Source: Candidatus Eiseniibacteriota bacterium
Lineage (GTDB): Bacteria > Eisenbacteria > RBG-16-71-46
Reading direction: 5' to 3'
Assembly (NCBI GenBank): GCA_005893225.1
Contig: VBOT01000053.1
Coordinates: forward strand, 3,462 to 67,461
DNA length: 64,000 bases
Shown in pieces: positions 29,566 through 49,546 of this stretch; position 1 is the stretch's first letter; the number at the start of each line of letters is the position of its first letter. The notes under the pieces are model-generated. The model ran no database searches. It had not been told where the DNA came from and saw nothing but the letters and a program-made list of their open reading frames with translations. A program made the translations under genes and the position numbers.

Positions 29566-29833
29566 GGCGGGAACGAGCCTCAAACATCCATTATCGCTTG
29601 CCGGGTGGCCCGCGGCCGCGGCTTGTCGACGAGCGCGGCGGCCCCGATGCACCAGCGCGGGGCGGTCTAGCGAATGAAGGCCCGTGGCTTGCTGTAGCTT
29701 ATGGCTGTATCCAGCAATGTCGGGGGGCTATAATCGCTGGCCGCTCTGAGCGGTAGGGGCCGAGGCAGGTCACCGACCTGTCAGGAAGCTCACCCGACCG
29801 GTCGTCTGTCTTCCACACTTGGAGGTTGAGACT

Positions 29834-31273
29834 TTGAAGAGCTCGAGATGGGCGGGCCTGGTGCTCGCGCTGGCCATCGGCCCGCTCCCGGCCCAGGCTG
29901 CGCCCGCCACGACCCAGCGTCCCCCTGCCGGCACGGCGCCGGCGCGGCGTCCCGCGGGGGCCACCGTCGCGCCCGCGCGGCGCGCCACGCCCGCCCAGCG
30001 TCTCCAGCGGCTCGACGGAATCGCCGCTGTCGTCAACGATGACGTGGTGCTCCAGAGCGATGTCGAGGAGCAGTTGGCGCTGTTCGTCATGCGCAGCCAG
30101 ATCCAGCCGGACTCGGCCGCCGTCGACACGCTGCGCCGCCAGATCCTCGATCAGCTCATCGACGAGAAGCTGATCGTGGCGGAGGCCAAGCGTCAGGGCA
30201 TCACCGTGCCCGACGCCGAGATCGAGAAGCAGGTGGCGGACGCGCTGGCGGACGTCCGGCAGCGGCTCGGGAGCGAGCAGGCGTACCGCGAGCAGCTCGC
30301 GAGAGAGAACATGACCGAGGAGAAGCTGCGCGACAAGTACCGCGACGAGATCCGGCGCCAGCTCCTGGCCCAGCGGCTGGTCCAGAAGCAGTTGCCGCAC
30401 AAGAGCGTGCTCCCGGCGGAGGCGGAGGCCTACTTCAAGGCCAACCACGACAAGTTCCCGAAGATGCCTCCCGAGGTCAGGCTCCAGGTGATCCAGATCC
30501 CCGCCGCCGCCGACTCGGCCACCGAGGCCAAGGCCAAGGCCGAAGCCGTGGCGGTTCGCAAGCGGATCCTGGCGGGCGAGAAGTTCGCCAAGGTGGCGGC
30601 GGATGTCTCCGACGACCCCAACTCCGCGCGTTCGGGCGGCGACCTCGGCTTCTTCACGCGCGGCACGGTGGACTCCTCGCTCGAGGTCGTGGCGTTCGGC
30701 CTCAAGATCGGCGCGCTGAGCCCGCCGGTGCGGAGCCCCTTCGGCTGGCACATCATCGAGGTGCTGGAGCGCGACACGGTCAGGACCGTGGCCGGGCGCG
30801 ACAGCCTCGATCAGCAGGGGCGCCCGGTGCCCGAGGTCCACGCGCGCCACATCCTGATTCGCGTGCCGGTGAACGAGGCCGACAAGGAGCGGTCCCGCAA
30901 GCTCGCCGAGCGGGTTCGCGGCGAGGCGCTCAAGGGCACGGACTTCGGGACCCTGGTGCGGCGCTACAGCAAGTACGACGGGCCCCAGAGCCCGGATGGC
31001 GACGTCGGCTTCGTGTCGATGTCTTCGCTCCAGCCGCAGATCCGCGCCGGGCTCGACACGCTCGAGATGGGGCAGGTCAGCGACGTGCTCGTCAACCAGG
31101 CGGGGTTCAACATCTTCAAGGTCAACGACCGCAAGCCCGAACGCGAATACACGCTCGACGAGATCCGGGGAGAGCTCCCCGAGGTGGTCGCCCAGATGAA
31201 GCAGCGGGACCGCTACGACCAGTGGGTGAAGGAGCTGCGCACCAAGGCCCACATCGAGATCCGGAACTCGTGA
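29834..31273 (+). CDS. surA: SurA-like periplasmic chaperone / peptidyl-prolyl isomerase (two parvulin domains)
   Basis: SurA N-domain IAAVVNDDVVLQSDVEEQ. Two PpiC domains (GGDLGFFTRGTV; DGDVGFVSMSSL). GGAGG RBS before TTG 29834 (track start TTG 29819). Confidence 0.8.
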   Translation: MKSSRWAGLVLALAIGPLPAQAAPATTQRPPAGTAPARRPAGATVAPARRATPAQRLQRLDGIAAVVNDDVVLQSDVEEQLALFVMRSQIQPDSAAVDTLRRQILDQLIDEKLIVAEAKRQGITVPDAEIEKQVADALADVRQRLGSEQAYREQLARENMTEEKLRDKYRDEIRRQLLAQRLVQKQLPHKSVLPAEAEAYFKANHDKFPKMPPEVRLQVIQIPAAADSATEAKAKAEAVAVRKRILAGEKFAKVAADVSDDPNSARSGGDLGFFTRGTVDSSLEVVAFGLKIGALSPPVRSPFGWHIIEVLERDTVRTVAGRDSLDQQGRPVPEVHARHILIRVPVNEADKERSRKLAERVRGEALKGTDFGTLVRRYSKYDGPQSPDGDVGFVSMSSLQPQIRAGLDTLEMGQVSDVLVNQAGFNIFKVNDRKPEREYTLDEIRGELPEVVAQMKQRDRYDQWVKELRTKAHIEIRNS

Positions 31274-34171: not shown

Positions 34172-35305
34172 GTGCCCATTCCCGCGCTCTCCGACCTCCT
34201 GGGACAGCCCGAGGCCTCCGCGTTCCTGAGCGGCGTCGTCGCGCGCGCCCGGTACGCCAACGCCTACCTCTTTCAGGGTCCCGCGGGGGTCGGCAAGGGG
34301 ACCGCCGCCCTGGCCTTCGCGCGCGCCGTCCTGTGCGACCGGAGCGGGGGAGCGCCTCCGTGCGGGCGCTGTCCCGCCTGCCTCAAGAGCGCCCGCCTCC
34401 AGCACCCGGATCTCAAGTTCCTGTTCCCGGTCTCCGGCGAGGAGAAAGATCTGGACGAGACCATCGCCGCCACGCTCGCGGCGTGGCGCGAGGACCCGCT
34501 CTTCGTGTTCTCCTACGAGAAGGCGGCCTCGATCCGTCTCTCGATCACCCGCGACCTGCTCCGCGAGCTTGCGTTCAAGCCGTTCGAGGCCCAGCGCCGC
34601 GTGGTGGTCGTGCGGGACGCCGACCGCATGCGCGAGGACCAGTACTCGGCGATGCTCAAGGCGATCGAGGAGCCGGGCGCCTCCAGCCTCTGGGTGCTCA
34701 CCACCGCGCGGCCCTCGCGCCTGCCGGCGACCATCCGCTCACGCTGCCAGAAGGTGCGCTTCGCCCCGCTGCCCGAGGACCTGATCGCGGACTTCCTCTC
34801 CGAGCGGGCCGGCATCACCGCGCGCCCCGCGCGCATGCTCGCGGCGCTTTCCGGAGGCTCGCTGGCCCGCGCGCTGACGCTGCGCGAGCAGGATCCGCTG
34901 GCGCTGCGCAACCAGGCGCTCGCCCTGCTCGAGCCCGCGCTGCGAGGGGACCCGGCCACTCTGTGGAAGACGCTCGGCCGCCTCGGTCGCCCCGGACGCG
35001 AGACGATCCGCCGCCTCGTCGAGTTCCACCAGCTCTGGCTGCGCGACATCCTGCGCGCCCGCTACGGCGCGCCGCGCGAGTCGCTGGTCCATCGCGACCG
35101 GGAGGAGGAGATCCGCAAGCAGGCGCAGACACTCGATGCCACCGAGGTCCGGCGCCGGCTGATGGTGCTGGAGGAAGTCCTGCGCGCGATGGAGAGCAAC
35201 GTCGCGGTGGAGGTCGCGCTGTTCTCGGCGCTGACCCGGCTGGCGGACCGGTCGCTCGAGACCGACTCCTGGCCCCCTCATCCGACCGATCGGTGGGCCT
35301 ACTGA
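34172..35305 (+). CDS. holB: DNA polymerase III subunit delta prime
   Basis: AYLFQGPAGVGKGTAALAFARAVLC, zinc module CGRCPAC, and SRCQKVRF sensor motif. Confidence 0.85.
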   Translation: MPIPALSDLLGQPEASAFLSGVVARARYANAYLFQGPAGVGKGTAALAFARAVLCDRSGGAPPCGRCPACLKSARLQHPDLKFLFPVSGEEKDLDETIAATLAAWREDPLFVFSYEKAASIRLSITRDLLRELAFKPFEAQRRVVVVRDADRMREDQYSAMLKAIEEPGASSLWVLTTARPSRLPATIRSRCQKVRFAPLPEDLIADFLSERAGITARPARMLAALSGGSLARALTLREQDPLALRNQALALLEPALRGDPATLWKTLGRLGRPGRETIRRLVEFHQLWLRDILRARYGAPRESLVHRDREEEIRKQAQTLDATEVRRRLMVLEEVLRAMESNVAVEVALFSALTRLADRSLETDSWPPHPTDRWAY

Positions 35306-35361
35306 AGACGCCGTCGCGCCGCGGCGTCCCGTGGCGCGGCCGGCCGACCCCGCCGCCGCCG

Positions 35362-35583
35362 TCATTCCTCCCGGGCGTAGAGCTCGACGTAGCCGCAGCG
35401 CTCGCAGCGGTACGCCGTGATCGGGTGCCGCGCCTTGCCGCGCGTCTTGGTTCGGCCCCAGAACGAGCGCTCCGGGGCCCCCTCGATCCAGGACGCCACC
35501 TTTCCGCTGTCGTGGTGAGATCGATCGAAGAGGAATCCCCGCTGCATGCTGGCCGAGCATCGCGCGCACTTCGGCTGATTCAT
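35362..35583 (-). CDS. small Zn-ribbon protein (two CxxC pairs; DUF2082-like predicted nucleic-acid-binding)
   Basis: 73 aa: MNQPKCARCS...YRCERCGYVELYAREE. Only the 3' end of the reported 445-aa ORF appears real. Confidence 0.6.
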   Translation of the reverse strand: MNQPKCARCSASMQRGFLFDRSHHDSGKVASWIEGAPERSFWGRTKTRGKARHPITAYRCERCGYVELYAREE

Positions 35584-35648
35584 GGTCCGCCCCTTTCCTC
35601 CTGCCTCACCCACCCGAGCGCCTGGCACGCTCGCGGCGGGCGAGCGTA

Positions 35649-38600
35649 CTACTTCACGAGGAGGAAGCGTCCCGACGTTGCCCGGCCCCCGGCCAGGACG
35701 CGATAGAAGTAGACCCCGCTCCCGAGGGGCGCTCCGGACTCGCCCGAGCCGTCCAGGGCCACCTGGTGCTCGCCCGGAAGGATGCTCGGGAGGTCCAGGA
35801 GCGTGCGGACTCTTCGTCCGCGAAGGTCGAAGACCTCGATCCGCACCGGCCCGGCCCGCGACACCGAGAAATGGAGCTCGCCGTCCCGCCGGAGCGGATT
35901 CGGCGCCACCCAGGATGCCGGATGTGGAACCGGCGAGGCTTCTGGGCCACTCGCGGCCGCGGAGCGGCTCTCGGCCGCCGAGGCCGCCAGCTCCAGGTGG
36001 AGGATCGCCGCCCCACTCGCGGCGCCGTCGTACGAGACGGCGGTCCGCTTCCCGGACCCGGTGATCAGCAGCGCCAGGGCATTGCCGCTCCGCCACCCCG
36101 GGCGCCCGACGATCTCCTGGATCACGGGCGAGAGATCGGGCGTACGCTGCTCGGTGCCCGCCTGCCCGGCCGTCCAGGGCAGGATCGCCGGCCACGACAC
36201 CGCGGCCTGGGTGCCCGTCCCGAGCCTCGCCGTCAGGCTCCCGCTCCCGGTCGTGAATGCCGCGGCGTTGTCCGCCGCCTCCCCGCGAATCGAAAGGGTC
36301 GTCGCCTCGGACTGCGACTCGTCCGCCTGGAACTGCACGTAGGCCCCCGTCACGCTCGACCCTGCCGGGATCGAGAGTCCCGCGAACCGCAGTCCCACGA
36401 CCTTCTGCGGCGTGCCGTCGATCATCATCTCGAGATCGCTGCTGGTGAGGCTGACGCTCCCGTCGGAATGCTCCTCGGCGTCGTCGGGCCCGGCGGCGAT
36501 CCGAGTCTCGAGCGAGGCCCCGCCTCCTGACGATGGGATGTCGTGGCCGACGATCGCCACCGTGTCGCGCGACACGAGCTGCCCGTCGCTGGCCCGGAGC
36601 TCCAGCAGGTAGGTTCCCGCCACGCTGAACGACGCGCGCGTATCCACCGCGGCGGCGTTCGCGAACGTGACCGTCCCGGGGCCGCTGGCCTTGCTCCATG
36701 TTGTTACGAGGGAAGGCGGCTGCGGCAGCCCGTCGTCGGACACGGTTCCGTCCAGCGGCGCGTCGTTCGGCAGCGTGATGACCTGGTCCGGTCCCGCGTT
36801 CACGACCGGGGCCTGGTTAGTCACGGACCCCGACGTGTACTCCACGTGGAGCAGCGCAGCCGCGCCGGGGATCCCATCGAACGACACCGCGGTCCGGTGA
36901 CCCGACCCGGTGACGAGCAGGGCCAGGGCGTTGCCGCTCCGCCACCCGGCGCGCCCGACGATCTCGCGGATCACGGGCGAGAGGTCCGGCGTGCGCTGAT
37001 CGCTCCCCACCTGCCCGGCCGTCCAGGGCAGGAGCCCCGGCCAGCTCACCGCCGCCTGGGTGCCCGCCCCGAGCCTCGCCGTCAGGCTTCCGCTCGAGGT
37101 CGTGAACGCCGCGGCGTTGTCCGCCGCCTCGCCTCGGATCGAAAGCGTCGTCGCCTCGGACTGCGACTCGTCCGCCTGGAACTGCACGTAGGCTCGCGTC
37201 ACGCTCGAGCCCGCCGGGATCGAAACGCCCGTGAAGCGCAGGCCGACCACCTTCTGAGGAGTTCCGTCGATCATCATCTCGAGGTCGCCGCTCGTGAGGT
37301 TGACGCTCCCGTCGGAGCGCTCCTCGGCGTCGTCAGGCCCGGCGGCGATCCGGGTATCGATCGTCCCGGAGCCCGGAGGCCTCGTGTCCACGCAAGCGGT
37401 GTTCGACGGGGCGCCCTCGAGCCCGTTCGTCCCCACCGCCGTGGCCTCGTAGCACAGCTGGGCCTGCGGCGGGCTCGAGTCGGTGAAGCCGAGACTGGTG
37501 ACCAGGCTCGAGTTGAGCTTCTGGAACGAGCCGCCGTCCGCCTGCCGGTAGACGTCGTACCCGCTCACCGTGCCGGAGGGCGGGCCCCACGACAGGTCGA
37601 CCCGCGTCGGAGAAGAGCGCAGGGTCGCGATCAGGCTCTGGGGCGGTCCCGGCGCCGATCCGCCGGAGCCCGGCGAGCCGAACCCGTTCCACAGCGCCTT
37701 GCTGCCGTTCTCCGCCACGGCGATGAGGCTCCCCCTGGGAAGGATCTGTTTCATCCCGCTCACGTTGTTCATGTCCTTGGTGGACGAGATGAAGATCGTC
37801 TGGCCGCCGAAGCTGAGCGCCTCGATGTCGGCGACTCGATACTCGATGCGTTCGGGCGAGACTCCCCAGCGCGTGTAGAGGATGTAGACCTTGGAGTCCT
37901 GCTCAGCGACCATGATGATGCCCCGCGTCCCGGTCCCCGGGCCAATGACGTCGGTCTTAGTTGTCCAGGTGCCGTTCGTGGCGCGCCGGTGGACGCGCAT
38001 ATGATCGACGGCATCCTTGGTGATGGCGTAGACGCGACCCTGGGAATCGAAGGCCAGGTTCACGTGATCGTCGGCGTGGCCCGAGCCGTGGTCCACGACC
38101 TCCTCCGCGGCCCAGGTGCCGGGAGGATCGCTGTCGCGGTGCACCCGGAACCCGAACTCGTCGCGCTTCTGGTCGGACCAGAACACCCCGACCTTGTCGC
38201 CTCCGAAAGCCACGATCGAGGAGATGTCGTCGGCGTCGATTCCGGAGCGCAGGACGATGGAGCTCGACCACGAGCGGTGGTCGGCGGTGGTGGTGTAGTA
38301 GACGTTGACGTTGCCCCCGCCTTCGGCCGTCGCCCAGAGCCGGCCCGAGGAATCCTCCTCGAGCACCATGGTCTCCGAGCCGCTCGGGTTGGGGACCGTC
38401 ACGGGGAACCCCGAGGCCAGGACCCAGGAACGGGTGCCCGCCGCGTAGGTGTACTGGTAGAGCCGCACCGTGCCCCCGTAGACGAGCACGAAGAGATGCG
38501 TACCGTCCCACTTGACGTCCGCGTTCCCCGAGCTCTGGAGCACCGCATTCGCGAACTGCCCGCGTTGCCAGGCGCCTCCGACCAGCTGGTAGAAGGCCAC

Positions 38601-38849
38601 GCCGTCGGGACCCTGGAGCACGGCCCAGTAGAAACCGTCGTTGTAGAAGAGCTTGGACTGCGGCTTCTCCCCGGTGCTGGCCGCCACGGTGGAGAACATC
38701 TCGAATCCGACGTTCGCCGCCCCGGCGGGCGCGGGGCAGGCGAGGAGCGCCGCCGCCAGTCCGGCCATCACCCCGGCGGCCGCCACCGGCGATCCGGTGT
38801 CACGCATGGATGTATATCCCAGGTGTGGAGCAGGTGGCTGACGGAGCAC
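35649..38849 (-). CDS. large secreted beta-propeller/FN3 protein with two near-identical ~190-aa internal repeats and Por/T9SS-type C-terminal domain
   Basis: Signal peptide. FN3-like PPQSLIATLRSSPTRVDLSWGPPSGTVSGYDVYRQ. Duplicated TRIAAGPDDAEE...RTAVS.DG modules. C-terminal GVYFYRVLAGGRATSGRFLLVK. Confidence 0.8.
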   Translation of the reverse strand: MLRQPPAPHLGYTSMRDTGSPVAAAGVMAGLAAALLACPAPAGAANVGFEMFSTVAASTGEKPQSKLFYNDGFYWAVLQGPDGVAFYQLVGGAWQRGQFANAVLQSSGNADVKWDGTHLFVLVYGGTVRLYQYTYAAGTRSWVLASGFPVTVPNPSGSETMVLEEDSSGRLWATAEGGGNVNVYYTTTADHRSWSSSIVLRSGIDADDISSIVAFGGDKVGVFWSDQKRDEFGFRVHRDSDPPGTWAAEEVVDHGSGHADDHVNLAFDSQGRVYAITKDAVDHMRVHRRATNGTWTTKTDVIGPGTGTRGIIMVAEQDSKVYILYTRWGVSPERIEYRVADIEALSFGGQTIFISSTKDMNNVSGMKQILPRGSLIAVAENGSKALWNGFGSPGSGGSAPGPPQSLIATLRSSPTRVDLSWGPPSGTVSGYDVYRQADGGSFQKLNSSLVTSLGFTDSSPPQAQLCYEATAVGTNGLEGAPSNTACVDTRPPGSGTIDTRIAAGPDDAEERSDGSVNLTSGDLEMMIDGTPQKVVGLRFTGVSIPAGSSVTRAYVQFQADESQSEATTLSIRGEAADNAAAFTTSSGSLTARLGAGTQAAVSWPGLLPWTAGQVGSDQRTPDLSPVIREIVGRAGWRSGNALALLVTGSGHRTAVSFDGIPGAAALLHVEYTSGSVTNQAPVVNAGPDQVITLPNDAPLDGTVSDDGLPQPPSLVTTWSKASGPGTVTFANAAAVDTRASFSVAGTYLLELRASDGQLVSRDTVAIVGHDIPSSGGGASLETRIAAGPDDAEEHSDGSVSLTSSDLEMMIDGTPQKVVGLRFAGLSIPAGSSVTGAYVQFQADESQSEATTLSIRGEAADNAAAFTTGSGSLTARLGTGTQAAVSWPAILPWTAGQAGTEQRTPDLSPVIQEIVGRPGWRSGNALALLITGSGKRTAVSYDGAASGAAILHLELAASAAESRSAAASGPEASPVPHPASWVAPNPLRRDGELHFSVSRAGPVRIEVFDLRGRRVRTLLDLPSILPGEHQVALDGSGESGAPLGSGVYFYRVLAGGRATSGRFLLVK
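35940..37352. repeat. two ~840-nt tandem DNA repeats (~90% identical) inside the giant secreted-protein gene
   Basis: For example 36192-36375 vs 37035-37215 are nearly identical on the plus strand. Confidence 0.75.
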
Positions 38850-38999
38850 CGCGCTCCCGTTGGTCGATTTGCGCGCCGCTCCGCCCTGCGACCTCGCTGC
38901 TTCCAGACACTCCGACGGATCCGTACACGCGAACCCGAGCAGCCGATTCGCGCTCCGGATGGCTCGCGGCCGCCGGACCGTCGCTCTCCAGTCAGCGCG

Positions 39000-39110
39000 C
39001 GTCTCCGCTATTCTAGCATCTTTTCGATTCGCTTCGAAGGTTCATATCTACTGTTACATGCTGGTATCAATCATTATATCAATGATATTACGGAGCCGGG
39101 GTCGCGCTCC
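39000..39110 (-). promoter_or_regulatory. AT-rich island with direct TATCAAT repeats and an ATCATT/AATGAT inverted repeat; a perfect TATAAT on the minus strand; candidate promoter/operator upstream of the giant gene
   Basis: GC drops sharply. tatcaatcattatatcaatgatatta sits at 39065-39090. Confidence 0.35.
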
Positions 39111-39195
39111 CGGGCGCGCCGGGGACGGTCCCGCACGGCAGCCGGGCCTCGGTCCTCGCCGGGGCAGGCTGCCCGGCGTGTCCCGGAGGGGTTTC

Positions 39196-39924
39196 TCAAT
39201 GATCGTAGTTCAGAGGCGACGTGTCGATCGTGACCTTGTTGCGTGGATCCGGAACGTGGATCCGCACCTCCAGCACGTTGGGGTATCGGTTCGCCCCCTC
39301 GGCGAAGGTTCCCGCCGCATTGATCTCGTTGTGCACGATGTAGTCGCCCTCGGGCACCCCGGTGATGTCGATCCACTGCCCGCTCAGCTGCTTGAAGTAC
39401 CAGTCCCCCCATCCCGAGCTGATGCCCTGGCTGCGGCAGGTGTAGCCGTGGCTGTCGTTGTTGGAGTACTTGAGCAGGTCCTCGAGGCAGAAGGCCTGCT
39501 TGTGTCCTTGCGCGGCGATGCTCCGGTCGAGCTTGAGGAGTTGGTAGTTCGAGAAGCCGCGGATGTGGTAGTGCCGGTGGCACGGCGAGAACTCGAACCA
39601 CCGGGCGTAGGGGTTGCTGGGGTCGGTCGGATCGCCGACCACCAGGTCGCCGTCGCCCATGTTCATGACCACGGTGTCGAAGCGCAGCAGGCGCCGGTAG
39701 CCGGCGCCGCCCACCGAGCCCTCGACGAGCTCGCAGTCCCCCTGCTGGAACAGCCGGTCCACGATCTCCATCTGCGACTCGAATCGCTTGGGGTCGATCG
39801 TGAGGTCGGGTCGCCCGTGGTTGTTGTAGGCGGGGAAGTCACCGGAAACCGCGGTTCGCTGCGCCAGAGCCAGAGCCGGGAGCAGCGCGGCGATCGTGAC
39901 GGCAAGCACCAGTGTGCGTTTCAT
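39196..39924 (-). CDS. lysyl oxidase (LOX) family copper amine oxidase homologue, secreted
   Basis: Signal peptide. Aligns to the human LOX catalytic domain: WFEFSPCHRHYHIRGF (Cu site WEWHSCHQHYH); GHKQAFCLED (LTQ Lys, GHKASFCLED); GDWY...GQWIDITGVPEGDYIV (LTQ Tyr and CQWIDITDVKPGNYIL). Confidence 0.8.
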   Translation of the reverse strand: MKRTLVLAVTIAALLPALALAQRTAVSGDFPAYNNHGRPDLTIDPKRFESQMEIVDRLFQQGDCELVEGSVGGAGYRRLLRFDTVVMNMGDGDLVVGDPTDPSNPYARWFEFSPCHRHYHIRGFSNYQLLKLDRSIAAQGHKQAFCLEDLLKYSNNDSHGYTCRSQGISSGWGDWYFKQLSGQWIDITGVPEGDYIVHNEINAAGTFAEGANRYPNVLEVRIHVPDPRNKVTIDTSPLNYDH

Positions 39925-40274
39925 GGCTAACCCCCTGGGGTGGTGAGACGGGAAGCTGGACCGCGCCGTGGGCAGACTGTGCCCTCGACCCGCTCGCCGA
40001 CGGGGCTCCGGCCGGGCAGCGCGCTTCGAGCACCCGCCAAGCTTACACGAGACGCCGGGTTCACGAACGGCCCCGGCTGGGCTATGCTTGGGGGAGTCAA
40101 GATTCCCGTCGGCCAGCCGATGGGTTGTTCATAGCCGGCCTGTCCCGCGTGCCCCTCGGCTCCGGGCGCCTCGCTCTCCGCAGGTGGGCGCGGTCCAGCC
40201 GGATCGACACATCCGATTCGCTCGGCTCCCCAGCCGGCTGAAGGGGCGGGCTTCCGCCCCATAGAGGTCGTGAC

Positions 40275-41186
40275 ATGTCCGACGTGGTGCAGGTCTCTCT
40301 GCGCGGTTCCCGCAAGGAATTCTTCCTCAATTCACGCAACCTGTGGCTCACCCTCCACGATCCCGTCATCGTCCAGTCCGAGCACGGCGAGGCGATCGGC
40401 AAGGTGGCGCTCAAGGGTTACCTGGTGGAGCTCAAGCGTCCGGGGAACGTGACGCGCGAGATCATCCGCAAGGCGACCGAGGAGGACCTGGACCAGGAGG
40501 ACCACAACAGCGCCAGGGAAAAGGAAGCGTTCGAGCATTGCCTCGAGCGGATCGAGCTGCGTGAGCTCAAGATGGACCTGCGGGAGGTGGAGGTGGCCTT
40601 CAGCGGTCACCGGATCACCTTCTACTTCACCGCCGAGCACCGGGTCGACTTCCGCGAGCTGGTCAAGGACCTGGCGGCCCAGTTCCAGACCCGGATCGAG
40701 CTGCGCCAGATCGGCCAGCGCGACCAGGCCAAGCGGCTGGACGGCTGCGGCCCGTGCGGCCGGGCCTTCTGCTGCTCCACCTGGCTCAAGAGCTTCCATC
40801 CCGTCACCCTCAAGATGGCCCGCGAGCAGCAGCTCTCCCTGAACCCGACCAAGATCTCAGGGGCGTGCGGTCGTCTGATGTGCTGCCTGGCCTACGAGCT
40901 GGCCCAGTACCGGGACAGCGCCGAGAAGCTCCCGCCGATGGGCACCGAGCTGCGCACCGGCAAGGGCGTCTGCACGGTGACGCGCACCGAGCTCCACCAG
41001 GAGGCGGTGTGGGTGCGCGACGACGAGGGCGCCGAGCATCGCATCGCCTACGCCGACCTGCCGCCCGGTCCTTACCACAAGTGCGGCGACTGCACCTGCG
41101 GCAAGCGGCCCCGGGCAGCCGATGACGAGCCCCCGACCGACGGCGAGACGCCTCCGGAAGACTGGGCGGATCCGCCCGGACACTAG
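40275..41186 (+). CDS. ricT: PSP1 C-terminal domain protein RicT/YaaT
   Basis: GCGPCGRAFCCSTWL and GACGRLMCCLAYE cysteine motifs of the PSP1/YaaT family. Confidence 0.85.
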   Translation: MSDVVQVSLRGSRKEFFLNSRNLWLTLHDPVIVQSEHGEAIGKVALKGYLVELKRPGNVTREIIRKATEEDLDQEDHNSAREKEAFEHCLERIELRELKMDLREVEVAFSGHRITFYFTAEHRVDFRELVKDLAAQFQTRIELRQIGQRDQAKRLDGCGPCGRAFCCSTWLKSFHPVTLKMAREQQLSLNPTKISGACGRLMCCLAYELAQYRDSAEKLPPMGTELRTGKGVCTVTRTELHQEAVWVRDDEGAEHRIAYADLPPGPYHKCGDCTCGKRPRAADDEPPTDGETPPEDWADPPGH

Positions 41187-41556: not shown

Positions 41557-43893
41557 ATGGATCTCGCGGGGCGCTTGCTCGCCCAGTACCGTCTGGTCGA
41601 GAAGCTCGGCGAGGGAGGGATGGGCGCCGTCTTCCGCGCCGAGGACACCCGTCTGGGCCGGCAGGTGGCGCTGAAGCTCCTCTCCGCGCCCTCGCTGGCC
41701 GACCCGCGGGCGCGCGAGCGGCTGCTCGCCGAGGCCCGAGCGGTGGCGGCGCTCGAGCACCCGCACATCTGCCTGCTCTACGAATTCGGCGAGGCCGCCG
41801 GCCAGCCGTTCCTGGCCATGCAGCTCGTCGAGGGCGAGACGCTCCGGCAAGCGCTCCGCCAGGGACCCCTGAGCGAGGCGCGGACCCGCGCGATCGTCGC
41901 CGCCGTGGCCTCGGCGCTCGGGGCGGCTCACGGCCGCGGCCTCCTCCACCGCGACGTGAAGAGCGAGAACGTGCTGCTCGGCCGCGACGGCGGCATCAAG
42001 CTCTCGGACTTCGGGATCGCGCGGCACGCCGGCGGACAGAATCTGACCGCGGCCCACACCCTGGTGGGAAGCCCCGCCTACGCCGCGCCCGAGATCGTCG
42101 CCGGCGCCGAGCCGAGCGCCGCCTCCGACCAGTTCTCGCTCGCCGTCGTGGCCTACGAGTGCCTCACCGGGGCCCTGCCGTTCGCGGGCGAATCGCTGGC
42201 GGCGGTGCTCTACGCGATCACGAACCTGGAGCCCGAGTCCCCTTCGCGCCGGCGTCCGGGGCTGGATCGGGCGTGGGACGAGGCGCTGCGGCAGGCACTC
42301 GCCAAGGATCCGCAGCGCCGCTTCCCTTCCGTGAGCGAGTTCGCGAAGGCCCTGCCCGCCGAGCCGGCACCTCCCGCGAGCGCGAAGAAGCCGAAGACCG
42401 AACCGCCCTCCCTCGCGGTGCTCTACTTCGAGAACCTCTCGAACGACCCCGACAGCGAGTACTTCTGCGCCGGGATCACCGAGGACATCCTCACCGACCT
42501 CTCCAAGATCTCGGGGCTCCGCGTCGCCTCCCGCAACGCCGTCGCGCGCTTCAAGGGACAGGCGGTGGACATCCCGCGCGCCGCGGTCGAACTCGGAGTC
42601 GGGACGGTGCTCGAAGGGAGCGTGCGGCGCGCCGGCAACCGGGTGCGGATCTCGGCGCAGCTCATCAACGCGAGGGACGGGTTCCACGTCTGGGCCGAGC
42701 GCTACGATCGCACGCTCGACGACGTGTTCGCCGTGCAGGAGGACATCGCGCGCGCGATCGCCGCCGCCCTGCGCGGAGCGCTGACGCCGCAGGAGGCGGC
42801 CGAGCTCCACCGCGACCGGCCCGCGGCGGCGACCGCCTACGACCTCTACCTCAAGGGCCGGGGTCACTACCGGCAGTACACGCACGAGGAGAACCTGCGG
42901 GCGCTGGAGTGCTTCGACCAGGCGGTGGCGCTGGACCCGACCTACGCGCTCGCCTGGGCGGGGATCGCGGATGCCTGCGGTCAGATGCACGACAAGGCCT
43001 ACGACATGGACCCCCAGTGGATCGAGCGGGGGGCCGCGGCTGCCCGGCGCGCCATCGAGCTCGGGCCACGAATCCCGGAAGGCCACAAGGCGCACGCGCT
43101 CATCGAGGTGGTGCGGGGGAATCGCGAGGAAGCCATGCGCGCACTGCGCCAGGCGCTCGCCGTGGACCCGCGCTTCACGCCCGCGCTCAGCAATCTGGGG
43201 CTCTCTCTCGAGCTCGAGGGAGACCTCGCCGGAGCCGAGCGTTGCATCCGCCGGGCCATCGAGCTGGACCCGGCAGACGCGTACCTGGGATTCATGCTGG
43301 CAGTGACCCTGAGCGAGTCCCGTCGATTCGAGGAATGCATCCAAGAGACCCACCGGTTCCAGAGTCTCGGGACCGGGTCTTTCCATCAAACCGCGGCTCA
43401 CTGGGAGCGCGTGCACGCCCTGGCCTGCCTGGGCGACCTCGATGCTGCCCGACGCGAGCTCGAGGAGGCGAGGAAGGCGGGGCTCGGCGCCTTGGATTGC
43501 GAAGCGATCGAGACGTTCCTGGTCGCTGTCGCGGGCGAGGCAGGGCGTACCCGAGACGGGGTCAGACGCCTGAGCGGGAGGATCGGCGGCTTCATCGGGC
43601 CGTGGTTCCTGGTCGCCGCCGCCGCTGCGGTCGGCGATGCCGCCGGCGCCGTTCGCCTGCTCGCCGGAGCGGAGGAGGCCGGCATCGAGTGGGCGAGGAT
43701 ACACGCCGTCCTGCGCGTTCGCCCGTGGGTCGAGAGGATCCACGACAGCGCCGAGTTCCGCGCCTGGATCGGCGAGCGGGGGCAAAGGATCGTCTGGCCG
43801 CTCGAGGCCCCGCCCCTCACCGCAGAGCAGCGCGCGCGATTCACCGACTACAGCGAGGCCAGCGGGCTGCCTCAAGGGGACGGGATTCCGTGA
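41557..43893 (+). CDS. Ser/Thr protein kinase fused to a conserved PSLAVLYFENLS...EYFCAGITEDI module and TPR repeats
   Basis: Kinase motifs GEGGMGAVF, VALK, HRDVKSENVLL, DFG, SPAYAAPE. TPR-like C-terminal half. Confidence 0.85.
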   Translation: MDLAGRLLAQYRLVEKLGEGGMGAVFRAEDTRLGRQVALKLLSAPSLADPRARERLLAEARAVAALEHPHICLLYEFGEAAGQPFLAMQLVEGETLRQALRQGPLSEARTRAIVAAVASALGAAHGRGLLHRDVKSENVLLGRDGGIKLSDFGIARHAGGQNLTAAHTLVGSPAYAAPEIVAGAEPSAASDQFSLAVVAYECLTGALPFAGESLAAVLYAITNLEPESPSRRRPGLDRAWDEALRQALAKDPQRRFPSVSEFAKALPAEPAPPASAKKPKTEPPSLAVLYFENLSNDPDSEYFCAGITEDILTDLSKISGLRVASRNAVARFKGQAVDIPRAAVELGVGTVLEGSVRRAGNRVRISAQLINARDGFHVWAERYDRTLDDVFAVQEDIARAIAAALRGALTPQEAAELHRDRPAAATAYDLYLKGRGHYRQYTHEENLRALECFDQAVALDPTYALAWAGIADACGQMHDKAYDMDPQWIERGAAAARRAIELGPRIPEGHKAHALIEVVRGNREEAMRALRQALAVDPRFTPALSNLGLSLELEGDLAGAERCIRRAIELDPADAYLGFMLAVTLSESRRFEECIQETHRFQSLGTGSFHQTAAHWERVHALACLGDLDAARRELEEARKAGLGALDCEAIETFLVAVAGEAGRTRDGVRRLSGRIGGFIGPWFLVAAAAAVGDAAGAVRLLAGAEEAGIEWARIHAVLRVRPWVERIHDSAEFRAWIGERGQRIVWPLEAPPLTAEQRARFTDYSEASGLPQGDGIP

Positions 43894-44251: not shown

Positions 44252-45469
44252 TCAGAAGCCGTAAACCGCGCTGACCAGCACGGTCGTCTGGCTATCGCTC
44301 CGCCCGCCCTCTTTCTCGAACACGCTGTGGGTCGAGTGATCCACGCGGAGATCGCCGCGAACCAGCAGGCTCGAACTCAAGCGGACCTCCGGAGTCAGCG
44401 TGATCTCGTTCACGCTTTGACTGACGCCGGTGCGCGCTCCGTCGCTGTCATCGAACGTCTCGCCACGCACCGACAACGCGAACGCCCCAAACGGGCCGAA
44501 GCGCGCGTATCCGGCGATCCCGCTCCAGGTCGCGTCCTCACCGAGCTGGGCGGCGTTCTGCTCCGTTCCCCAGTCGCCGTTCGCGCCGAGCGCTAGCTGC
44601 GGTGAAGCCCTCCAAATCGCCACGAAATCCAGCAGCGAACGCCCGTCAGAGCCGTTGTCGACGCGCTCGGGGCCCGTCATGGCGTTGAGGTAGACCGTCA
44701 CCGGCGGGACGGGGGTGAACACGAGCTGGGCACCCACCGACTTGGCCCGGTTGTTGTCCCGTGCGTTGTCCCAGCCGTTGACGAGTAGGAGCGTGGCGGC
44801 GACGTGGGGCGACACCGCGTAGGATGCTCGCACCCCGGTGTGGGTGAACGGGATCGCGAAGCCGAACAGGATCGAGCGCGTGGCGTTGTCGTTCCAGCCG
44901 TCATAGCCGTCGATCACTTCGTAGCCAAAGTGCGTGACAAACTTGCCGGCGTCAATCCTGAGCCCTGAGCCGAGCGGCGCGACGTAGCTCATGTAGGCCT
45001 GCTGGAGATCGAGGTCCTCCGCCGTTCCGGCCGCGTCGCGAAACAGCCCGGCGGCCGCACTGACTCGTGGAATCGAGCTGCCGAGCGCCACGTCGGCCCG
45101 GAAGCCCGTTTCCCGCGGATTCGACGCCGACTTCTGAGCCACCAGCTCGAAGACGTCGATCTTGAAGGAGTTGTCGTCGAAGTCGAACACGCGAAGGGTA
45201 TTCGTCCGTGAATCGGGTCGGTTGAAATTGTACGAGTAGCTCGTCGACATGAAACCGTTGACCTGGATCGCCTGGTACCAGGGCGTGGGAGGCACGATCT
45301 CGGCCGCCATCGCGCTGCTGGGCAGGGAGAGCCCCACTCCGCCAACCAGCCACACGACGATGTGAGCGACGCGGGGAGAGGCGGCCCGTCTTGGGCCAGA
45401 GGTTCGCTCGGCCCCGGCGGCCGATCGCGGGTCGGCGTCGTGTCGCACGCCGAGTGAGGGCGGGGCCAT
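44252..45469 (-). CDS. putative outer-membrane beta-barrel porin encoded immediately downstream of amt
   Basis: Signal peptide. Alternating amphipathic strands. C-terminal ...VLVSAVYGF (terminal Phe). Start lies 2 nt after the amt stop. Confidence 0.6.
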   Translation of the reverse strand: MAPPSLGVRHDADPRSAAGAERTSGPRRAASPRVAHIVVWLVGGVGLSLPSSAMAAEIVPPTPWYQAIQVNGFMSTSYSYNFNRPDSRTNTLRVFDFDDNSFKIDVFELVAQKSASNPRETGFRADVALGSSIPRVSAAAGLFRDAAGTAEDLDLQQAYMSYVAPLGSGLRIDAGKFVTHFGYEVIDGYDGWNDNATRSILFGFAIPFTHTGVRASYAVSPHVAATLLLVNGWDNARDNNRAKSVGAQLVFTPVPPVTVYLNAMTGPERVDNGSDGRSLLDFVAIWRASPQLALGANGDWGTEQNAAQLGEDATWSGIAGYARFGPFGAFALSVRGETFDDSDGARTGVSQSVNEITLTPEVRLSSSLLVRGDLRVDHSTHSVFEKEGGRSDSQTTVLVSAVYGF

Positions 45470-45471
45470 GT

Positions 45472-46698
45472 TCACGCCACTTCGATGTCGATGTACGCCG
45501 CCTCGCCGTGCAGCGCCTCGTCGAGACCGACCTGCTCGTGCGATTCCGTGACACGCACCGGCGTGAATCGGTCGATCAGCCACAACATGACGAGAGTGAA
45601 GATGAACGCCCAGGCCGACGAGAGCAGCACCGCCGCGCACTGTTTGTAGAAGAACGACGCGTTCCCGGCGAGCAAGCCATCGGCGCCAGCGGGGTTGAAC
45701 GCCTTCGTCGCGAGGACACCGAGCATCACGATGCCGAGGAATCCACCCACGCCGTGCACGCCCCACACGTCGAGCGCGTCGTCCCAGTTGAGCCGGTTCT
45801 TGAGCGCCACGGCCAGGTAGCACACCAGGCCCGAAACGATGCCGATCACGACCGCGCTGGTCGGCGACACGAAGCCGGCCGCCGGCGTCACGGTGGCGAG
45901 CCCGGCCACGGCGCCGGTCAGAAGGCCGAGGAACTTGGGCTTCCGCGTGGTTATCCAGTCGACGGCCATCCACGTCACGGCGGCGAACGAGGCGGCGAGA
46001 TCGGTGTTGATGAAGGCGGTGGCGGTCGTGGAGTCGACGCGGAACTCGCTGCCCGCATTGAAGCCGTACCAGCCGAACCACAACAGCCCGGTGCCGAGCG
46101 CCACCAGCGGAATGCTGTGCGGCCCCTTGTCCTTGAAACGGCGTGGTCCGACGTAGAGCACGGCCGCGAGCGCCGCGATCCCGGCGATGTTGTGCACCAC
46201 GATGCCGCCCGCGAAATCGAGCACGCCCCACTTCTGGAGCACTCCGCCTCCCCAGATCATGTGCACGAAGGGGAAGTAGACCAGCACCAGCCACAGAGTC
46301 AGGAAGATCAGGTAGGCCTTGAACGTAACCCGGTTGGCGAACGCCCCGGTGATGAGCGCCGGGGTGATGATGGCGAACATCATCTGGTAGGCCATGAAGA
46401 CGATGAGCGGGATGGTGTCGTTCGGTGACGGTGTGGTCAGCGTGATATTGCGCATGAACGCCATATCGAGGTTGCCGATCACGCCACCTTCGCCCCCGGA
46501 GAAGCAGAGCGAGTAGCCGAACGCGTACCAGATCACGGTGGTCCAGCCCATCGAGACGAAGCTCTGCATCATGATGGCCAGCACGTTCCGGCGTCCGACC
46601 AGACCGCCGTAGAAGAACGCCAGCCCGGGGGTCATGAGCATGACCAGGCTGCAGCAGAGCAGCATGAATCCGGTGTTGCCCGTATCGAGGTGGAGCAT
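45472..46698 (-). CDS. amt: ammonium transporter (Amt/MEP family)
   Basis: DFAGGIVVHNIAGIAALAAVLYVGPRR, GAVAGLATVTPAAGFV and 11 TM helices. GGAGG RBS before ATG 46698. Confidence 0.9.
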   Translation of the reverse strand: MLHLDTGNTGFMLLCCSLVMLMTPGLAFFYGGLVGRRNVLAIMMQSFVSMGWTTVIWYAFGYSLCFSGGEGGVIGNLDMAFMRNITLTTPSPNDTIPLIVFMAYQMMFAIITPALITGAFANRVTFKAYLIFLTLWLVLVYFPFVHMIWGGGVLQKWGVLDFAGGIVVHNIAGIAALAAVLYVGPRRFKDKGPHSIPLVALGTGLLWFGWYGFNAGSEFRVDSTTATAFINTDLAASFAAVTWMAVDWITTRKPKFLGLLTGAVAGLATVTPAAGFVSPTSAVVIGIVSGLVCYLAVALKNRLNWDDALDVWGVHGVGGFLGIVMLGVLATKAFNPAGADGLLAGNASFFYKQCAAVLLSSAWAFIFTLVMLWLIDRFTPVRVTESHEQVGLDEALHGEAAYIDIEVA

Positions 46699-46983
46699 CG
46701 CGACTCCTCCGTGCGTGCGCTTCACGGCTGTGCGCCGGGGATGCGGCCAGGCGCCCAACGGCCGGCAGCCCCGCCCGGTTGGGATTACCCCGATGAACGC
46801 GGGCGGATTCGTGATCCGGTGGGCGAATCGGCTGGCAGGATAGGCCGTCGGCCTCGGGAGTTCTAGTCGCGTGGCGAGGAGGCATTCCGCGCCACAAAGG
46901 CTCGCCCCCGTCGCCATCCGCCCCCTCATTCGCGCCCCACTTGCGCGACTCGCTATAATCCCCGCCTCAACCCCGGAGACTGC

Positions 46984-48705
46984 GTGCCCAGGTTCTACAT
47001 CACCACCGCCATCGATTACGTCAACGGCCGCCCCCATATCGGCCATGCTTACGAGAAGATCCTGGCCGACGCCTTGGCACGCTTCCACCGCCAGCGCGGC
47101 GACGCCACGTACTTCCTGACCGGTACCGACGAGCACGGGCAGAAGATCGCGAAGACGGCGGCGGCGGCCGGTAAGCCTCCCAAGGCCTTCGTCGACGAGT
47201 ACGCGGCCCACTTCAAGACGGCCTGGAAGGCGCTCGACGTCTCGTACGACAAGTTCATCCGCACTACCGACCAGCGCCACGAGCTGGCGGTCCAGGAGCT
47301 GTTCCGGCGGCTCAACGACGCGCGCAGCCCCAAGACCGGCGAGCCGGTGCTCTTCGAGGAGGGTTACGAGGGCCTCTACTGCGAGGGCTGCGAGGCGTTC
47401 AAGCAGGAGAAGGATCTGGACGCGAAGGGCCTGTGCCCGGAGCACCGCACGCCGCCCAAGCGGATCAAGGAGACCAACTTCTTCTTCCGCCTCTCCGAGT
47501 ACGACGAGGCGCTGCTCAAGCACATCGAGAACCACCCCGAATTCATCGAGCCCGACTACCGGCGCAACGAGGTGCTGAACGTCATCCGCGAAGGCCTGCA
47601 GGACGTGAGCGTCACGCGCCCCAGCGTCCCGTGGGGGGTGCCCCTACCGGAAGAAATCCCGGGCGCCGAGGGCCACACCGTGTACGTCTGGGCCGACGCC
47701 CTGCTCAACTACCTATCCGCCATCGGCTGGCCGGAGCGGCGCTATTCGCTGTGGTGGCTCGCCAAGGAAAGCGACGTCGGAGGCCCGGGGGCGGCTCGCC
47801 AGGACGAGTTCCAGCACCTGGACGGTCAGGGCCGGCCGGGGGCGGCATGGGCCGGCACCACCCAGCCGCAGTACACCAACGCCTTCCACCTGATCGGCAA
47901 GGACATCAGCCGCTTCCACTGCGTGCTCTGGCCGGCGCTGCTGCTCGCCGCCGGCGTGCCGCTGCCGCGGCAGGTCTACGTGCACGGCTTCATCAACGTG
48001 CGCGGCGAGAAGCTGTCCAAGTCGGTCGGCAACCAGGTCGATCCGGTCGAGATGGCGCGCCAGTTCGGGGCCGACGCTCTGCGCTTCTACCTGCTCGACG
48101 CCGTCCCGACCGGGCGCGACGGGGAGTTCACGTTCGAGCACTTCGTCGAGCACTGCAACACCCATCTCGCGAACGACCTCGGGAACCTGGCGAGCCGCTC
48201 GGTGGCGATGGTGCACAAGTACTTCGACGGCGTGGCCCCGGCCGAGTGGGCTCCCGAGTCGCTGCAGGATCCGGAGGCTCGCGATGCCCTCCAGACGCTG
48301 ATCGCGGCGGCGAGCGAGGCGAGCTTCCAGGTGTCGAAGGCGTTCCAGGAGGTGCGGGTCGACGAGGCGCTGCACGAGGCGTGGCAGCCGGTGGTGCGCG
48401 CGAACGAGTTGATCGAGCGCGTGAAGCCCTGGGCTCTGGCCAAGGATCCGGACCGCCGGACTGAGCTCGGGACCGCGCTCCACGCGCTGCTCGAGACGCT
48501 GAGGCTGGTAGCAGTGTGGGCGTGGCCGGCGCTCCCGGGCAAGAGCGAGGAGCTGTGGGCGCTCCTCGCCCTCCCGGGCAAGCCGGGGGAGACCCATCAG
48601 GAGGCGGCGACGCCGCGCTTCGGCGACGCCTCGCTCGCGGGCCGGAAGCTCGGCGAAGTGAAGAGCCTGTTCCCGCGCATCGAGCTCGAGCCCAAGACCT
48701 CATGA
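46984..48705 (+). CDS. metG: methionyl-tRNA synthetase (short form) with ~40-aa low-complexity insertion before the HLIGKD region
   Basis: HIGH motif RPHIGHAY. Zn knuckle CEGCEAF. KMSKS as KLSKS. Insertion LAKESDVGGPGAARQDEFQHLDGQGRPGAAWAGTTQPQ. Confidence 0.85.
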   Translation: MPRFYITTAIDYVNGRPHIGHAYEKILADALARFHRQRGDATYFLTGTDEHGQKIAKTAAAAGKPPKAFVDEYAAHFKTAWKALDVSYDKFIRTTDQRHELAVQELFRRLNDARSPKTGEPVLFEEGYEGLYCEGCEAFKQEKDLDAKGLCPEHRTPPKRIKETNFFFRLSEYDEALLKHIENHPEFIEPDYRRNEVLNVIREGLQDVSVTRPSVPWGVPLPEEIPGAEGHTVYVWADALLNYLSAIGWPERRYSLWWLAKESDVGGPGAARQDEFQHLDGQGRPGAAWAGTTQPQYTNAFHLIGKDISRFHCVLWPALLLAAGVPLPRQVYVHGFINVRGEKLSKSVGNQVDPVEMARQFGADALRFYLLDAVPTGRDGEFTFEHFVEHCNTHLANDLGNLASRSVAMVHKYFDGVAPAEWAPESLQDPEARDALQTLIAAASEASFQVSKAFQEVRVDEALHEAWQPVVRANELIERVKPWALAKDPDRRTELGTALHALLETLRLVAVWAWPALPGKSEELWALLALPGKPGETHQEAATPRFGDASLAGRKLGEVKSLFPRIELEPKTS

Positions 48706-48751: not shown

Positions 48752-49546
48752 GTGATCGACACCCACTGCCACCTCTGCGACAAGCGCTTCGACAAGGACC
48801 GCGAGCAGGTGCTCGATCGCGCTTTCGAGGCCGGCGTGACCCACCTGATCGAAATCGCGTACTCGCCGGCGATCGTCCCGCGGGCTCACGCGCTGGCCTC
48901 CCGGCACCCCAACCTCTTCCTCTGCCTGGGAGTCCACCCGAGCGAGGCGGCCAAGGTGCCGGACGACTACCTCGCCACCCTGCGCGACCACGCGGGCCAC
49001 GCGCGCGTCGTGGCGATCGGCGAGACCGGCCTCGACTTCTACAGGGACCACGCGCCCCGACCCGACCAGGAGCGGTGGTTCCGCGCCCAACTCGGGCTGG
49101 CTGACGCGATGGGCCTGCCGGTGGTGATCCACCAGCGGAGCGCGCTCGAGGAGACGCTCGCCATCCTCGAGGAGCTGCGGCCGGCGGCCGGTGGGGTCTT
49201 GCACTGCTTCGACGACGGCCCCGAGGCCGTCGCGCGCGCCCGGGGCATCGGGTTCAAGCTCGGCCTGGGCGGCTGCCTCACCTACGGGCACGCGGCGCTG
49301 GACCAGGCCGTGCGAGAGGCACCCGGCGACATGCTGGTGCTCGAGACCGACTCGCCCTACCTCGAGCCCGAGCCGCGCTCGCTCCGCCGCAACGAGCCGG
49401 CGCTGCTCGGGCGCGTCGTCGCGCGCCTGTGCGAGCTCAAGGGCTGGACCAAAGCCGAGGCCGACCGGGTCACCACGGCGAACGCCCGCGAGCTCTTTCG
49501 CCTGCCGATCGGCCAGGGCAGCCTCCCCGCGAGCGGAAACGCCTAG
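48752..49546 (+). CDS. tatD: TatD-family metal-dependent hydrolase
   Basis: IDTHCHL start, VAIGETGLDFYRD, ETDSPYL motifs. Sits in the conserved metG-tatD arrangement. Confidence 0.85.
   Translation: MIDTHCHLCDKRFDKDREQVLDRAFEAGVTHLIEIAYSPAIVPRAHALASRHPNLFLCLGVHPSEAAKVPDDYLATLRDHAGHARVVAIGETGLDFYRDHAPRPDQERWFRAQLGLADAMGLPVVIHQRSALEETLAILEELRPAAGGVLHCFDDGPEAVARARGIGFKLGLGGCLTYGHAALDQAVREAPGDMLVLETDSPYLEPEPRSLRRNEPALLGRVVARLCELKGWTKAEADRVTTANARELFRLPIGQGSLPASGNA

Follow-up and report, generated by a model that had tools for sequence, protein, structure and literature searches.

The 64,000-nucleotide stretch analysed here (hereafter the window; contig VBOT01000053.1 of Candidatus Eiseniibacteriota bacterium) carries on its minus strand, at positions 39196..39924, a gene for a bacterial protein belonging to the family of lysyl oxidases (LOX). 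The gene product is best explained as a solitary, Sec-exported, propeptide-less, single-domain copper amine oxidase that has its own transcription signals, is not tied to the neighbouring protein with a type IX secretion system (T9SS) sorting domain and belongs to an anciently exchanged clade; the probability assigned to this reading is about 0.7. Bacterial LOX proteins of such architecture have been known since 2015 (PMC4448552), and close relatives are public under the family name. The modest addition made here concerns the features of the clade, namely a mature protein of about 221 residues with two disulfides and without a propeptide, uniformity across phylum labels and a gene that is always solitary.

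Family assignment and catalytic residues

The coding sequence, taken from the list of open reading frames (ORFs), comprises 242 codons with an ATG start; the frame is intact and the mature protein has about 221 residues. The product matches Pfam PF01186 (Lysyl_oxidase) over residues 75-211 with E=3.2e-29 and 102.5 bits (gathering cut-off 20.4) and the human LOXL2 structure PDB 5ZE3 with E=2.5e-22. The family match is far beyond chance. Identity to LOXL2 (5ZE3) and human LOX is 29-31% over about 195-200 aligned model columns. These matches, together with the catalytic residues described below, bear out the initial annotation of the window, which had proposed a bacterial LOX homologue at this position. 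The Pfam scan of the protein returned the LOX domain alone, with no SRCR domains, and the NCBIfam search with it matched no model. The GC content at third codon positions (GC3) of the gene is 0.90, like that of the surrounding host genes.

The 5ZE3 chain corresponds to LOXL2 residues 318-774, and adding 317 to the chain index gives the LOXL2 number and reproduces the published residues; the roles of LOXL2 residues as metal ligands, disulfide partners or the lysine and tyrosine of the lysyl tyrosylquinone (LTQ) cofactor follow Zhang et al. (2018; PMC5899467). Conservation was counted among 45 clade members sharing 67-89% identity with the window LOX. The numbering of the human LOX sequence in the alignment is self-consistent with the literature (H292/H294/H296, K320, Y355 and ten cysteines). 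The copper-binding histidine triad and the adjoining disulfide cysteine are found at C115-H116-R117-H118-Y119-H120 (39565..39582, minus strand), aligned to LOXL2 C625/H626/H628/H630. H116, H118 and H120 thus align with the metal ligands H626, H628 and H630 of LOXL2 and, presumably, with H292, H294 and H296 of human LOX. The LTQ lysine, K142 in GHKQAFCLED (39499..39501, minus strand), is aligned to LOXL2 K653 and presumably to human K320. The LTQ tyrosine, Y176 in GDWYFKQLSGQWIDIT (39397..39399, minus strand), which is aligned to LOXL2 Y689 and presumably to human Y355, is also the fourth metal ligand of the precursor. Seven residues (C64, C115, H116, H120, K142, C146 and Y176) are invariant in 45/45 clade members, with at least 90% conservation for H118 and C163. 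A set of 86 distant LOX proteins of bacteria likewise shows no variation in the LTQ lysine and tyrosine (K527 and Y561 of protein P0121). The clade also keeps D40, L41 and E209, the equivalents of the Ca2+ ligands of LOXL2, with little or no variation.

The initial annotation had named the loss of the copper-binding histidines or of the LTQ lysine as grounds for giving up the assignment; in the alignment H116, H118, H120 and K142 are all retained. Its GHKxxFCLED motif with the LTQ lysine was found as described. The copper site that it had written as WxxxxCHxHYH is present too, but the actual spacing is W-x5-CHxHYH (WFEFSPCHRHYH), one residue more than in animals, and similarly the tyrosine of the described Y-x-x-x-x-GQWIDIT segment exists as Y176 but is separated from GQWIDIT by five residues instead of four.

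The description of the flanking cysteines as all present, however, is contradicted by the alignment, in which only 4 of the 10 cysteines of the animal catalytic domain have counterparts (C64, C115, C146 and C163). C115, C146 and C163 correspond to LOXL2 C625, C657 and C673, and C64 is presumably C238 of human LOX, which by position would be LOXL2 C573. The five-disulfide framework of the animal catalytic domain is therefore absent, and equivalents exist for two of the five bonds, C64-C115 and C146-C163. The six other cysteine positions are occupied by S70, Y153, W172 and G182 or fall within the differing C-terminal tail, with Y153, W172 and G182 standing at LOXL2 C663, C685 and C695. In the wider bacterial LOX consensus, the EGC and LDCQW motifs still have cysteines at the positions of human LOX C244 and C361, and the replacement of this pair by S70 and G182 in the clade looks like a coordinated loss. 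The number of disulfides is highly variable in the LOX family, active members included (Pestov et al., 2019; PMC6452851). Therefore, five disulfides define animal LOX and not the family. The fourth animal histidine (human LOX H289) likewise has no equivalent in the window protein, as in bacterial LOX generally (Grau-Bove et al., 2015; PMC4448552).

The similarity to LOXL2 (5ZE3) and human LOX thus comprises the Pfam domain, the HxHxH copper site, the GHKxxFCLED motif, the LTQ tyrosine before QW[IV]DIT, the Ca2+-site positions PDL and E209, and a pair of disulfides. In place of the C-terminal ES3 segment of LOXL2 with C732-C746, a short conserved tail, VPDPRNKVTID, is found. The SRCR domains of LOXL2-4 and the propeptide of LOX/LOXL1 are both missing, and the protein falls into neither of these animal subfamilies. 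In organisation it resembles the prokaryotic LOX proteins surveyed by Grau-Bove et al. (2015; PMC4448552), which likewise consist of a signal peptide and a LOX domain only, keep the Cu/LTQ residues, lack the first animal histidine and are suspected of horizontal transfer. Compared with that set, the present clade is far more uniform and comes from uncultured lineages labelled Eisenbacteria, Acidobacteriota, Verrucomicrobia, Limnocylindria and Gaiellaceae. HTU-LOX from the archaeon Haloterrigena turkmenica is the one prokaryotic LOX whose enzymology has been reported. It is promiscuous, with lysine polymers, small amines, aminoglycosides and polymyxin as substrates, it is Cu-dependent and sensitive to beta-aminopropionitrile (BAPN), and its native role has been called cryptic (PMC6452851). 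The likeness to HTU-LOX, drawn from its description and not from its sequence, extends to the N-terminal signal peptide (PMC6452851). However, HTU-LOX has an autoinhibitory stretch, A39-Q92, ahead of the domain (PMC6452851), whereas in the window LOX only about 17 residues separate Q22, the predicted mature N-terminus, from the PDL motif that opens the catalytic domain. Such a short segment leaves no propeptide of the animal LOX or HTU-LOX kind. The closest relatives in cultured organisms are LOX-domain proteins of Sorangium and other Myxococcota (L028, L032-L049), with 37-46% identity over the domain and ORFs of 302-1717 amino acids, against 242 in the window. A literature search did not find the phrase 'bacterial lysyl oxidase', and on LOX in Myxococcota or Streptomyces it returned nothing beyond the 2015 survey (PMC4448552).

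Export, predicted fold and proposed chemistry

Residues 1-21 (MKRTLVLAVTIAALLPALALA; 39862..39924, minus strand) constitute a predicted Sec-type signal peptide, recognised by eye from its basic n-region, hydrophobic core and A-L-A ending, with predicted cleavage before Q22 (MKRTLVLAVTIAALLPALALA/QR). A helix at residues 2-20 in the AlphaFold2 model and these sequence features agree with the earlier statement that a signal peptide precedes the domain, and conservation in the clade begins exactly at Q22-R23-T24. The signal peptide has no lipobox cysteine, and a profile search of the protein for a T9SS sorting domain found none. The product would be exported by Sec, and its sequence is therefore compatible with either a periplasmic or a released final location. 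Upstream of the gene, a divergent intergenic region (39925..40274) separates LOX on the minus strand from ricT/PSP1 on the plus strand. It contains a GGGGG run resembling a Shine-Dalgarno ribosome-binding site about 8 nt before the LOX ATG and presumably also the LOX promoter; a sigma-70-type consensus was sought in this region and not found.

The AlphaFold2 model was built from the 45 clade members and reached a mean predicted local distance difference test (pLDDT) value of 72 and a predicted template modelling score (pTM) of 0.72. In a Foldseek comparison with the PDB, chains A and B of 5ZE3 were the only matches at E<=0.001 (E=1.8e-9, probability 1.00, TM-score normalised to the query 0.53). 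The model, although of moderate quality, thus reproduces the predicted LOX catalytic-domain fold, a beta-sandwich core with the Cu hairpin. The PDB searches turned up one solved LOX-family structure only, that of a zinc-bound precursor.

From the family membership and the invariant catalytic residues we infer the usual Cu/LTQ chemistry. After removal of the signal peptide before Q22, the domain of about 221 residues would fold as a LOX beta-sandwich held by the disulfides C64-C115 and C146-C163. Cu(II) would be bound by H116, H118 and H120, and LTQ would arise when Y176 is oxidised and the K142 side chain then captures it. The mature enzyme may then convert primary amines and O2 to the aldehyde, NH3 and H2O2.

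A compact clade in distantly related hosts

A search of a large protein database returned 1,129 relatives, of which the best 120 show 68-99% identity and a length of about 242 amino acids; one of them bears the NCBI name 'lysyl oxidase family protein [Candidatus Eisenbacteria bacterium]'. An exhaustive representative search with the LOX domain (E<=1e-3) gave 3,862 clusters at 50% identity, many of them multi-domain or tandem LOX proteins. Among the distant bacterial LOX proteins the commonest added domains were CARDB (10/86) and Y_Y_Y (5/86). With 3,862 clusters, and more than 1,000 sequences in this clade alone, the initial annotation overstated the rarity of LOX genes in bacteria. Its suggestion of a patchy distribution arising through horizontal transfer, on the other hand, is supported by the occurrence of the same clade, at 55-87% identity, in metagenome-assembled genomes (MAGs) of several labelled phyla, with GC contents of either about 54% or about 69%.

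Among species-representative MAGs, the compact form was found in those labelled Eisenbacteria, Acidobacteriota/Pyrinomonadaceae, Verrucomicrobia, Thermoanaerobaculia, Haliangiales, Gaiellaceae and Limnocylindria, with 61-78% identity to the window LOX (tblastn), and the Acidobacteriota/Pyrinomonadaceae carriers include Mb-scale contigs. The clade is found mostly in soil-type metagenomes. Pairwise identities within it range from 55 to 98% and delineate three subgroups, which unite Eisenbacteria with low-GC 'Verrucomicrobia', Acidobacteriota with Thermoanaerobaculia and Haliangiales, and Gaiellaceae with Limnocylindria. The GC3 of the clade LOX genes follows the host, being 0.57-0.75 in genomes of about 54% GC and 0.83-0.94 in those of about 69% GC. 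The ratio of nonsynonymous to synonymous substitutions (dN/dS) is roughly 0.1-0.35, and the synonymous divergence (dS) is about 0.7 or more and often saturated. A recent horizontal transfer was rejected on two grounds, namely this agreement of GC3 with the host and dS values that range from high to saturated. The picture is one of an old horizontal spread between distant lineages, followed by strong purifying selection and adaptation of codon usage to each host.

Carriage on mobile elements was also considered and rejected. The phage records searched with LOX gave no match, the plasmid matches are distant only (31-37% identity, on Streptomyces and Gemmatirosa megaplasmids), and the single case with an integrase is not recurrent. 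In that case (L052, 1061-2447) LOX is 77% identical, and at a distance of about 6 kb upstream come an HTH_17 gene and a phage-type integrase, followed by several small unannotated ORFs; in this genome LOX may be carried on an integrated element.

The window itself is Eisenbacteria-like by the matches of its RicT/PSP1 protein. Few of the top matches (74-83% identity) are named, and these include Candidatus Eisenbacteria (P0375, 78%) and Limnocylindria (P0283, 80%). The RicT of P0283, labelled Candidatus Limnocylindria (Chloroflexota), is as close to that of the window as the Eisenbacteria-labelled P0375, which suggests that some labels or bins of soil MAGs in this GC range are unreliable.

Neighbouring genes and possible substrates

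The initial annotation had paired the LOX gene with a neighbouring secreted repeat protein. In a search for conserved partners, ORFs within 4-6 kb of LOX were clustered, first for 50 genome loci and then for 119. No neighbour was common to the 50 loci, and the 119 loci showed more than 25 neighbourhood types, with no neighbour cluster present in more than 14 of them. The recurrent clusters that were inspected arose because one lineage had been sampled repeatedly. Relatives of LOX that share 70-80% identity have other surroundings, with a phosphatase and an acetyltransferase or with a two-component system and a glyoxalase-fold gene (L052, L055). The only recurring neighbours were rejected as partners on the grounds of lineage-specific synteny: in Pyrinomonadaceae a 135-aa secreted ORF, an MFS transporter and a DinB-like gene, and in the low-GC 'Verrucomicrobia' lineage a response-regulator/NYN-like set, and an apparent cross-phylum cluster proved to consist of generic ABC ATPases.

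Two lineage-restricted arrangements deserve mention in their own right. In Pyrinomonadaceae/Acidobacteriota loci (L009-L011, L014, L016, L018, L021-L023, L026) the conserved secreted protein of about 135 amino acids (…FPIGMSYGIPSI…VACPDAAGNEVVIYHF…) is encoded directly ahead of LOX on the same strand, some 440-580 bp upstream of where LOX was matched; it is the only candidate partner seen and is limited to that lineage. In one Eisenbacteria lineage (L055-L057, 8743-9132) a 129-aa gene of the glyoxalase/bleomycin-resistance fold begins 13 bp after LOX, and the two genes possibly form an operon there. A peroxiredoxin gene is found about 5.7 kb downstream in L055-L057. The arrangement is suggestive, since LOX makes aldehydes and H2O2, but it occurs in this one lineage only.

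Because no partner is conserved, a general amine-oxidising role is favoured over that of a dedicated matrix cross-linker. We lean towards a periplasmic or extracellular amine as the substrate, such as peptidyl-lysine or small or antibiotic amines, on the example of HTU-LOX, in preference to a dedicated, co-encoded matrix protein. Several points weigh against the reading of a solitary exported copper amine oxidase of an anciently exchanged clade. Of the five animal disulfides three are lost, among them both of those by which LOXL2 holds the ES1 segment and its Tyr-bearing strand in place (PMC5899467), and for this reason the activity of the enzyme is something that we infer. Residues 144-181, between the LTQ lysine and tyrosine, have pLDDT values below 50, so that the active-site geometry is modelled poorly. 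A Sec signal by itself does not tell the periplasm from release outside the cell. A specific macromolecular substrate whose gene lies elsewhere in the genome could be the cause of the strong conservation seen along the entire mature protein. Finally, the phylum labels of short, high-GC MAG contigs may be binning errors, as illustrated by L004, which is labelled 'Acidobacteria' and groups with Eisenbacteria at the same GC; the hosts with low-GC and with high-GC flanks of LOX, however, cannot be one organism.

A more specific proposal, which we advance tentatively, is that the propeptide-less LOX of about 242 amino acids with two disulfides is a distinct, horizontally shared soil-bacterial enzyme. 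The near-uniformity of its sequence across differently labelled hosts would then stem from a single shared task, performed in the periplasm or outside the cell and having nothing to do with cross-linking of a matrix. Examples of such a task are the acquisition of nitrogen by oxidative deamination of amines from the environment, inactivation of amine-bearing antibiotics (aminoglycosides, polymyxins) and production of H2O2. If true, this would make the clade an ecologically relevant class without a studied representative. Somewhat less probable, and in our judgement unlikely, is the view that the enzyme acts as a cross-linker on an envelope or matrix protein which the cell itself makes from a gene elsewhere in the genome, as a 'bacterial extracellular matrix' enzyme with a substrate common to all hosts of the clade. 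The unusually even conservation from Q22 onwards across differently labelled phyla slightly favours a macromolecular substrate, cross-linking is the classical function of the family, and HTU-LOX accepts lysine-containing polymers (PMC6452851). However, no conserved neighbour hints at such a substrate, and one common to genomes labelled Eisenbacteria, Acidobacteriota, Verrucomicrobia and Chloroflexota would need to be nearly universal. Collagen-like substrates within the 64-kb window were rejected, as Gly-X-Y runs occur in none of the frames called as genes, and cross-linking of bacterial collagen-like proteins was judged unlikely by Grau-Bove et al. (PMC4448552).

The idea that LOX is the dedicated cross-linker of the downstream secreted repeat protein, whose lysines would be oxidised to build a covalent surface or matrix layer, fares much worse. 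The neighbour (35649..38807, minus strand; probable start ATG at 38807), judged to lie outside the system, is an exported protein of 1052 amino acids with a signal peptide; it is not the 'giant' protein of the initial annotation, and its repeats amount to two copies of one module of about 170 residues. Its N-terminal region is weakly lectin/propeller-like, a K319L-like PKD domain follows, and the C-terminus is formed by a T9SS type A sorting domain, with matches to Pfam PKD and FlgD_ig and to TIGR04183 (27.8 bits, cut-off 23). The two modules flank the PKD domain at residues 485-654 and 768-937 (36846-37355 and 35997-36506 in the window), are 85% identical, start with TRIAAGPDDAEE and are without a Pfam assignment. 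Relatives of the protein join its N-terminal ~45% to LamG/Laminin_G and fn3 domains.

The adjacency of the two genes on the same strand, the N-terminal export signals on both products, the sorting domain by which the neighbour is probably surface-displayed, and the retention of the pair in contig L051 all speak for a functional link. Nevertheless, L051 comes from essentially the same strain (98% LOX identity, one mismatch in 450 bp of spacer) and is not independent, and it is the only place where the adjacency is kept. The other LOX loci have no adjoining homologue of the 1052-aa protein, the sole match covering 84 amino acids at the sorting-domain end, and P0393, which of the full-length homologues found is the closest (71% identity at 98% coverage), is flanked by unrelated genes with no LOX beside it. 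LOX and the downstream T9SS-sorted protein thus form a module neither by conserved adjacency nor by co-occurrence across lineages. In addition, the neighbour is lysine-poor (17 of 1052 residues, 1.6%), and LOX has no T9SS sorting domain, so the export routes of the two would differ.

The spacer between the LOX stop and the 1052-aa gene (38808..39195, minus strand, 388 bp) points in the same direction, as it holds an AT-rich, promoter-like stretch. This island of about 90 bp (~39005-39095) has a GC content of 0.28-0.47 in a genome of about 70% GC; read on the minus strand, it includes a TAGAAT hexamer as well as the palindrome ATCATTgatatAATGAT. The island may serve as promoter or operator, and an AT-rich, palindrome-containing spacer argues that the 1052-aa gene has its own promoter. 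An RNA element or terminator in the spacer was rejected, since the Rfam search matched no family, the fold of the LOX-proximal part was not significant (z=-1.2) and no terminator-like site was found on the strand of the gene. The comparative context largely refutes the dedicated cross-linker, which we regard as very improbable, and the adjacency is incidental.

The least credible alternative is a catalytically dead protein, for example a copper or ligand binder, in which the loss of three of five disulfides would block LTQ formation: the equivalents of LOXL2 C579/C695 and C663/C685 are indeed replaced and residues 144-181 are modelled with low confidence, but the Cu/LTQ residues are invariant or nearly so under the purifying selection described above, which makes inactivity unlikely, the loss of the human LOX C244/C361 pair appears coordinated (S70, G182) where the wider bacterial consensus keeps both cysteines, and a variable disulfide number is normal in the family (PMC6452851).

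What prokaryotic lysyl oxidases do is an unsolved question in the literature (PMC4448552, PMC6452851), and the window leaves it unanswered while removing the tempting false lead of the neighbour as substrate. As genome annotation the gene is ordinary, its relatives being already named 'lysyl oxidase family protein'. The compact, abundant and highly conserved clade, with no propeptide and only two disulfides, may be an easier target than animal LOX for expression, structure determination and substrate screening.

The position of the gene is also lineage-specific. LOX lies in a variable slot (35306..40274) between holB and ricT/PSP1, which holds three minus-strand genes, those for LOX, the 1052-aa protein and a 73-aa zinc-ribbon ORF. 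The backbone around it runs SurA (29819-31273), FtsE, FtsX, M23 peptidase, HolB (34172-35305, plus strand), the slot, RicT/PSP1 (40275-41186, plus strand), MetG (46984-48705) and TatD (48752-49546), and this order is kept in four contigs of related genomes (L058-L061). There the slot is filled differently, with a HAMP/response regulator and a 515- or 542-aa FlgD_ig protein, with a PAS histidine kinase, or with DUF885 and MatE genes. In the MAG VBOY01, LOX lies on another contig (L001) and the holB-ricT slot (L059) is occupied by other genes. It is from these differing slots and from the displaced LOX of VBOY01 that the lineage-specific character of the position follows.

The 73-aa ORF (35362-35583, minus strand), between holB and the 1052-aa gene, has two CxxC pairs (MNQPKCARCS...YRCERCGY) and probably encodes a small zinc-ribbon protein; it was called as a gene in L051 as well. 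A second variable stretch extends from ricT to metG, and in the window it contains a Ser/Thr kinase-TPR protein (41557-43893, plus strand) and an ORF with a BBP2 porin domain (44252-46897, minus strand).

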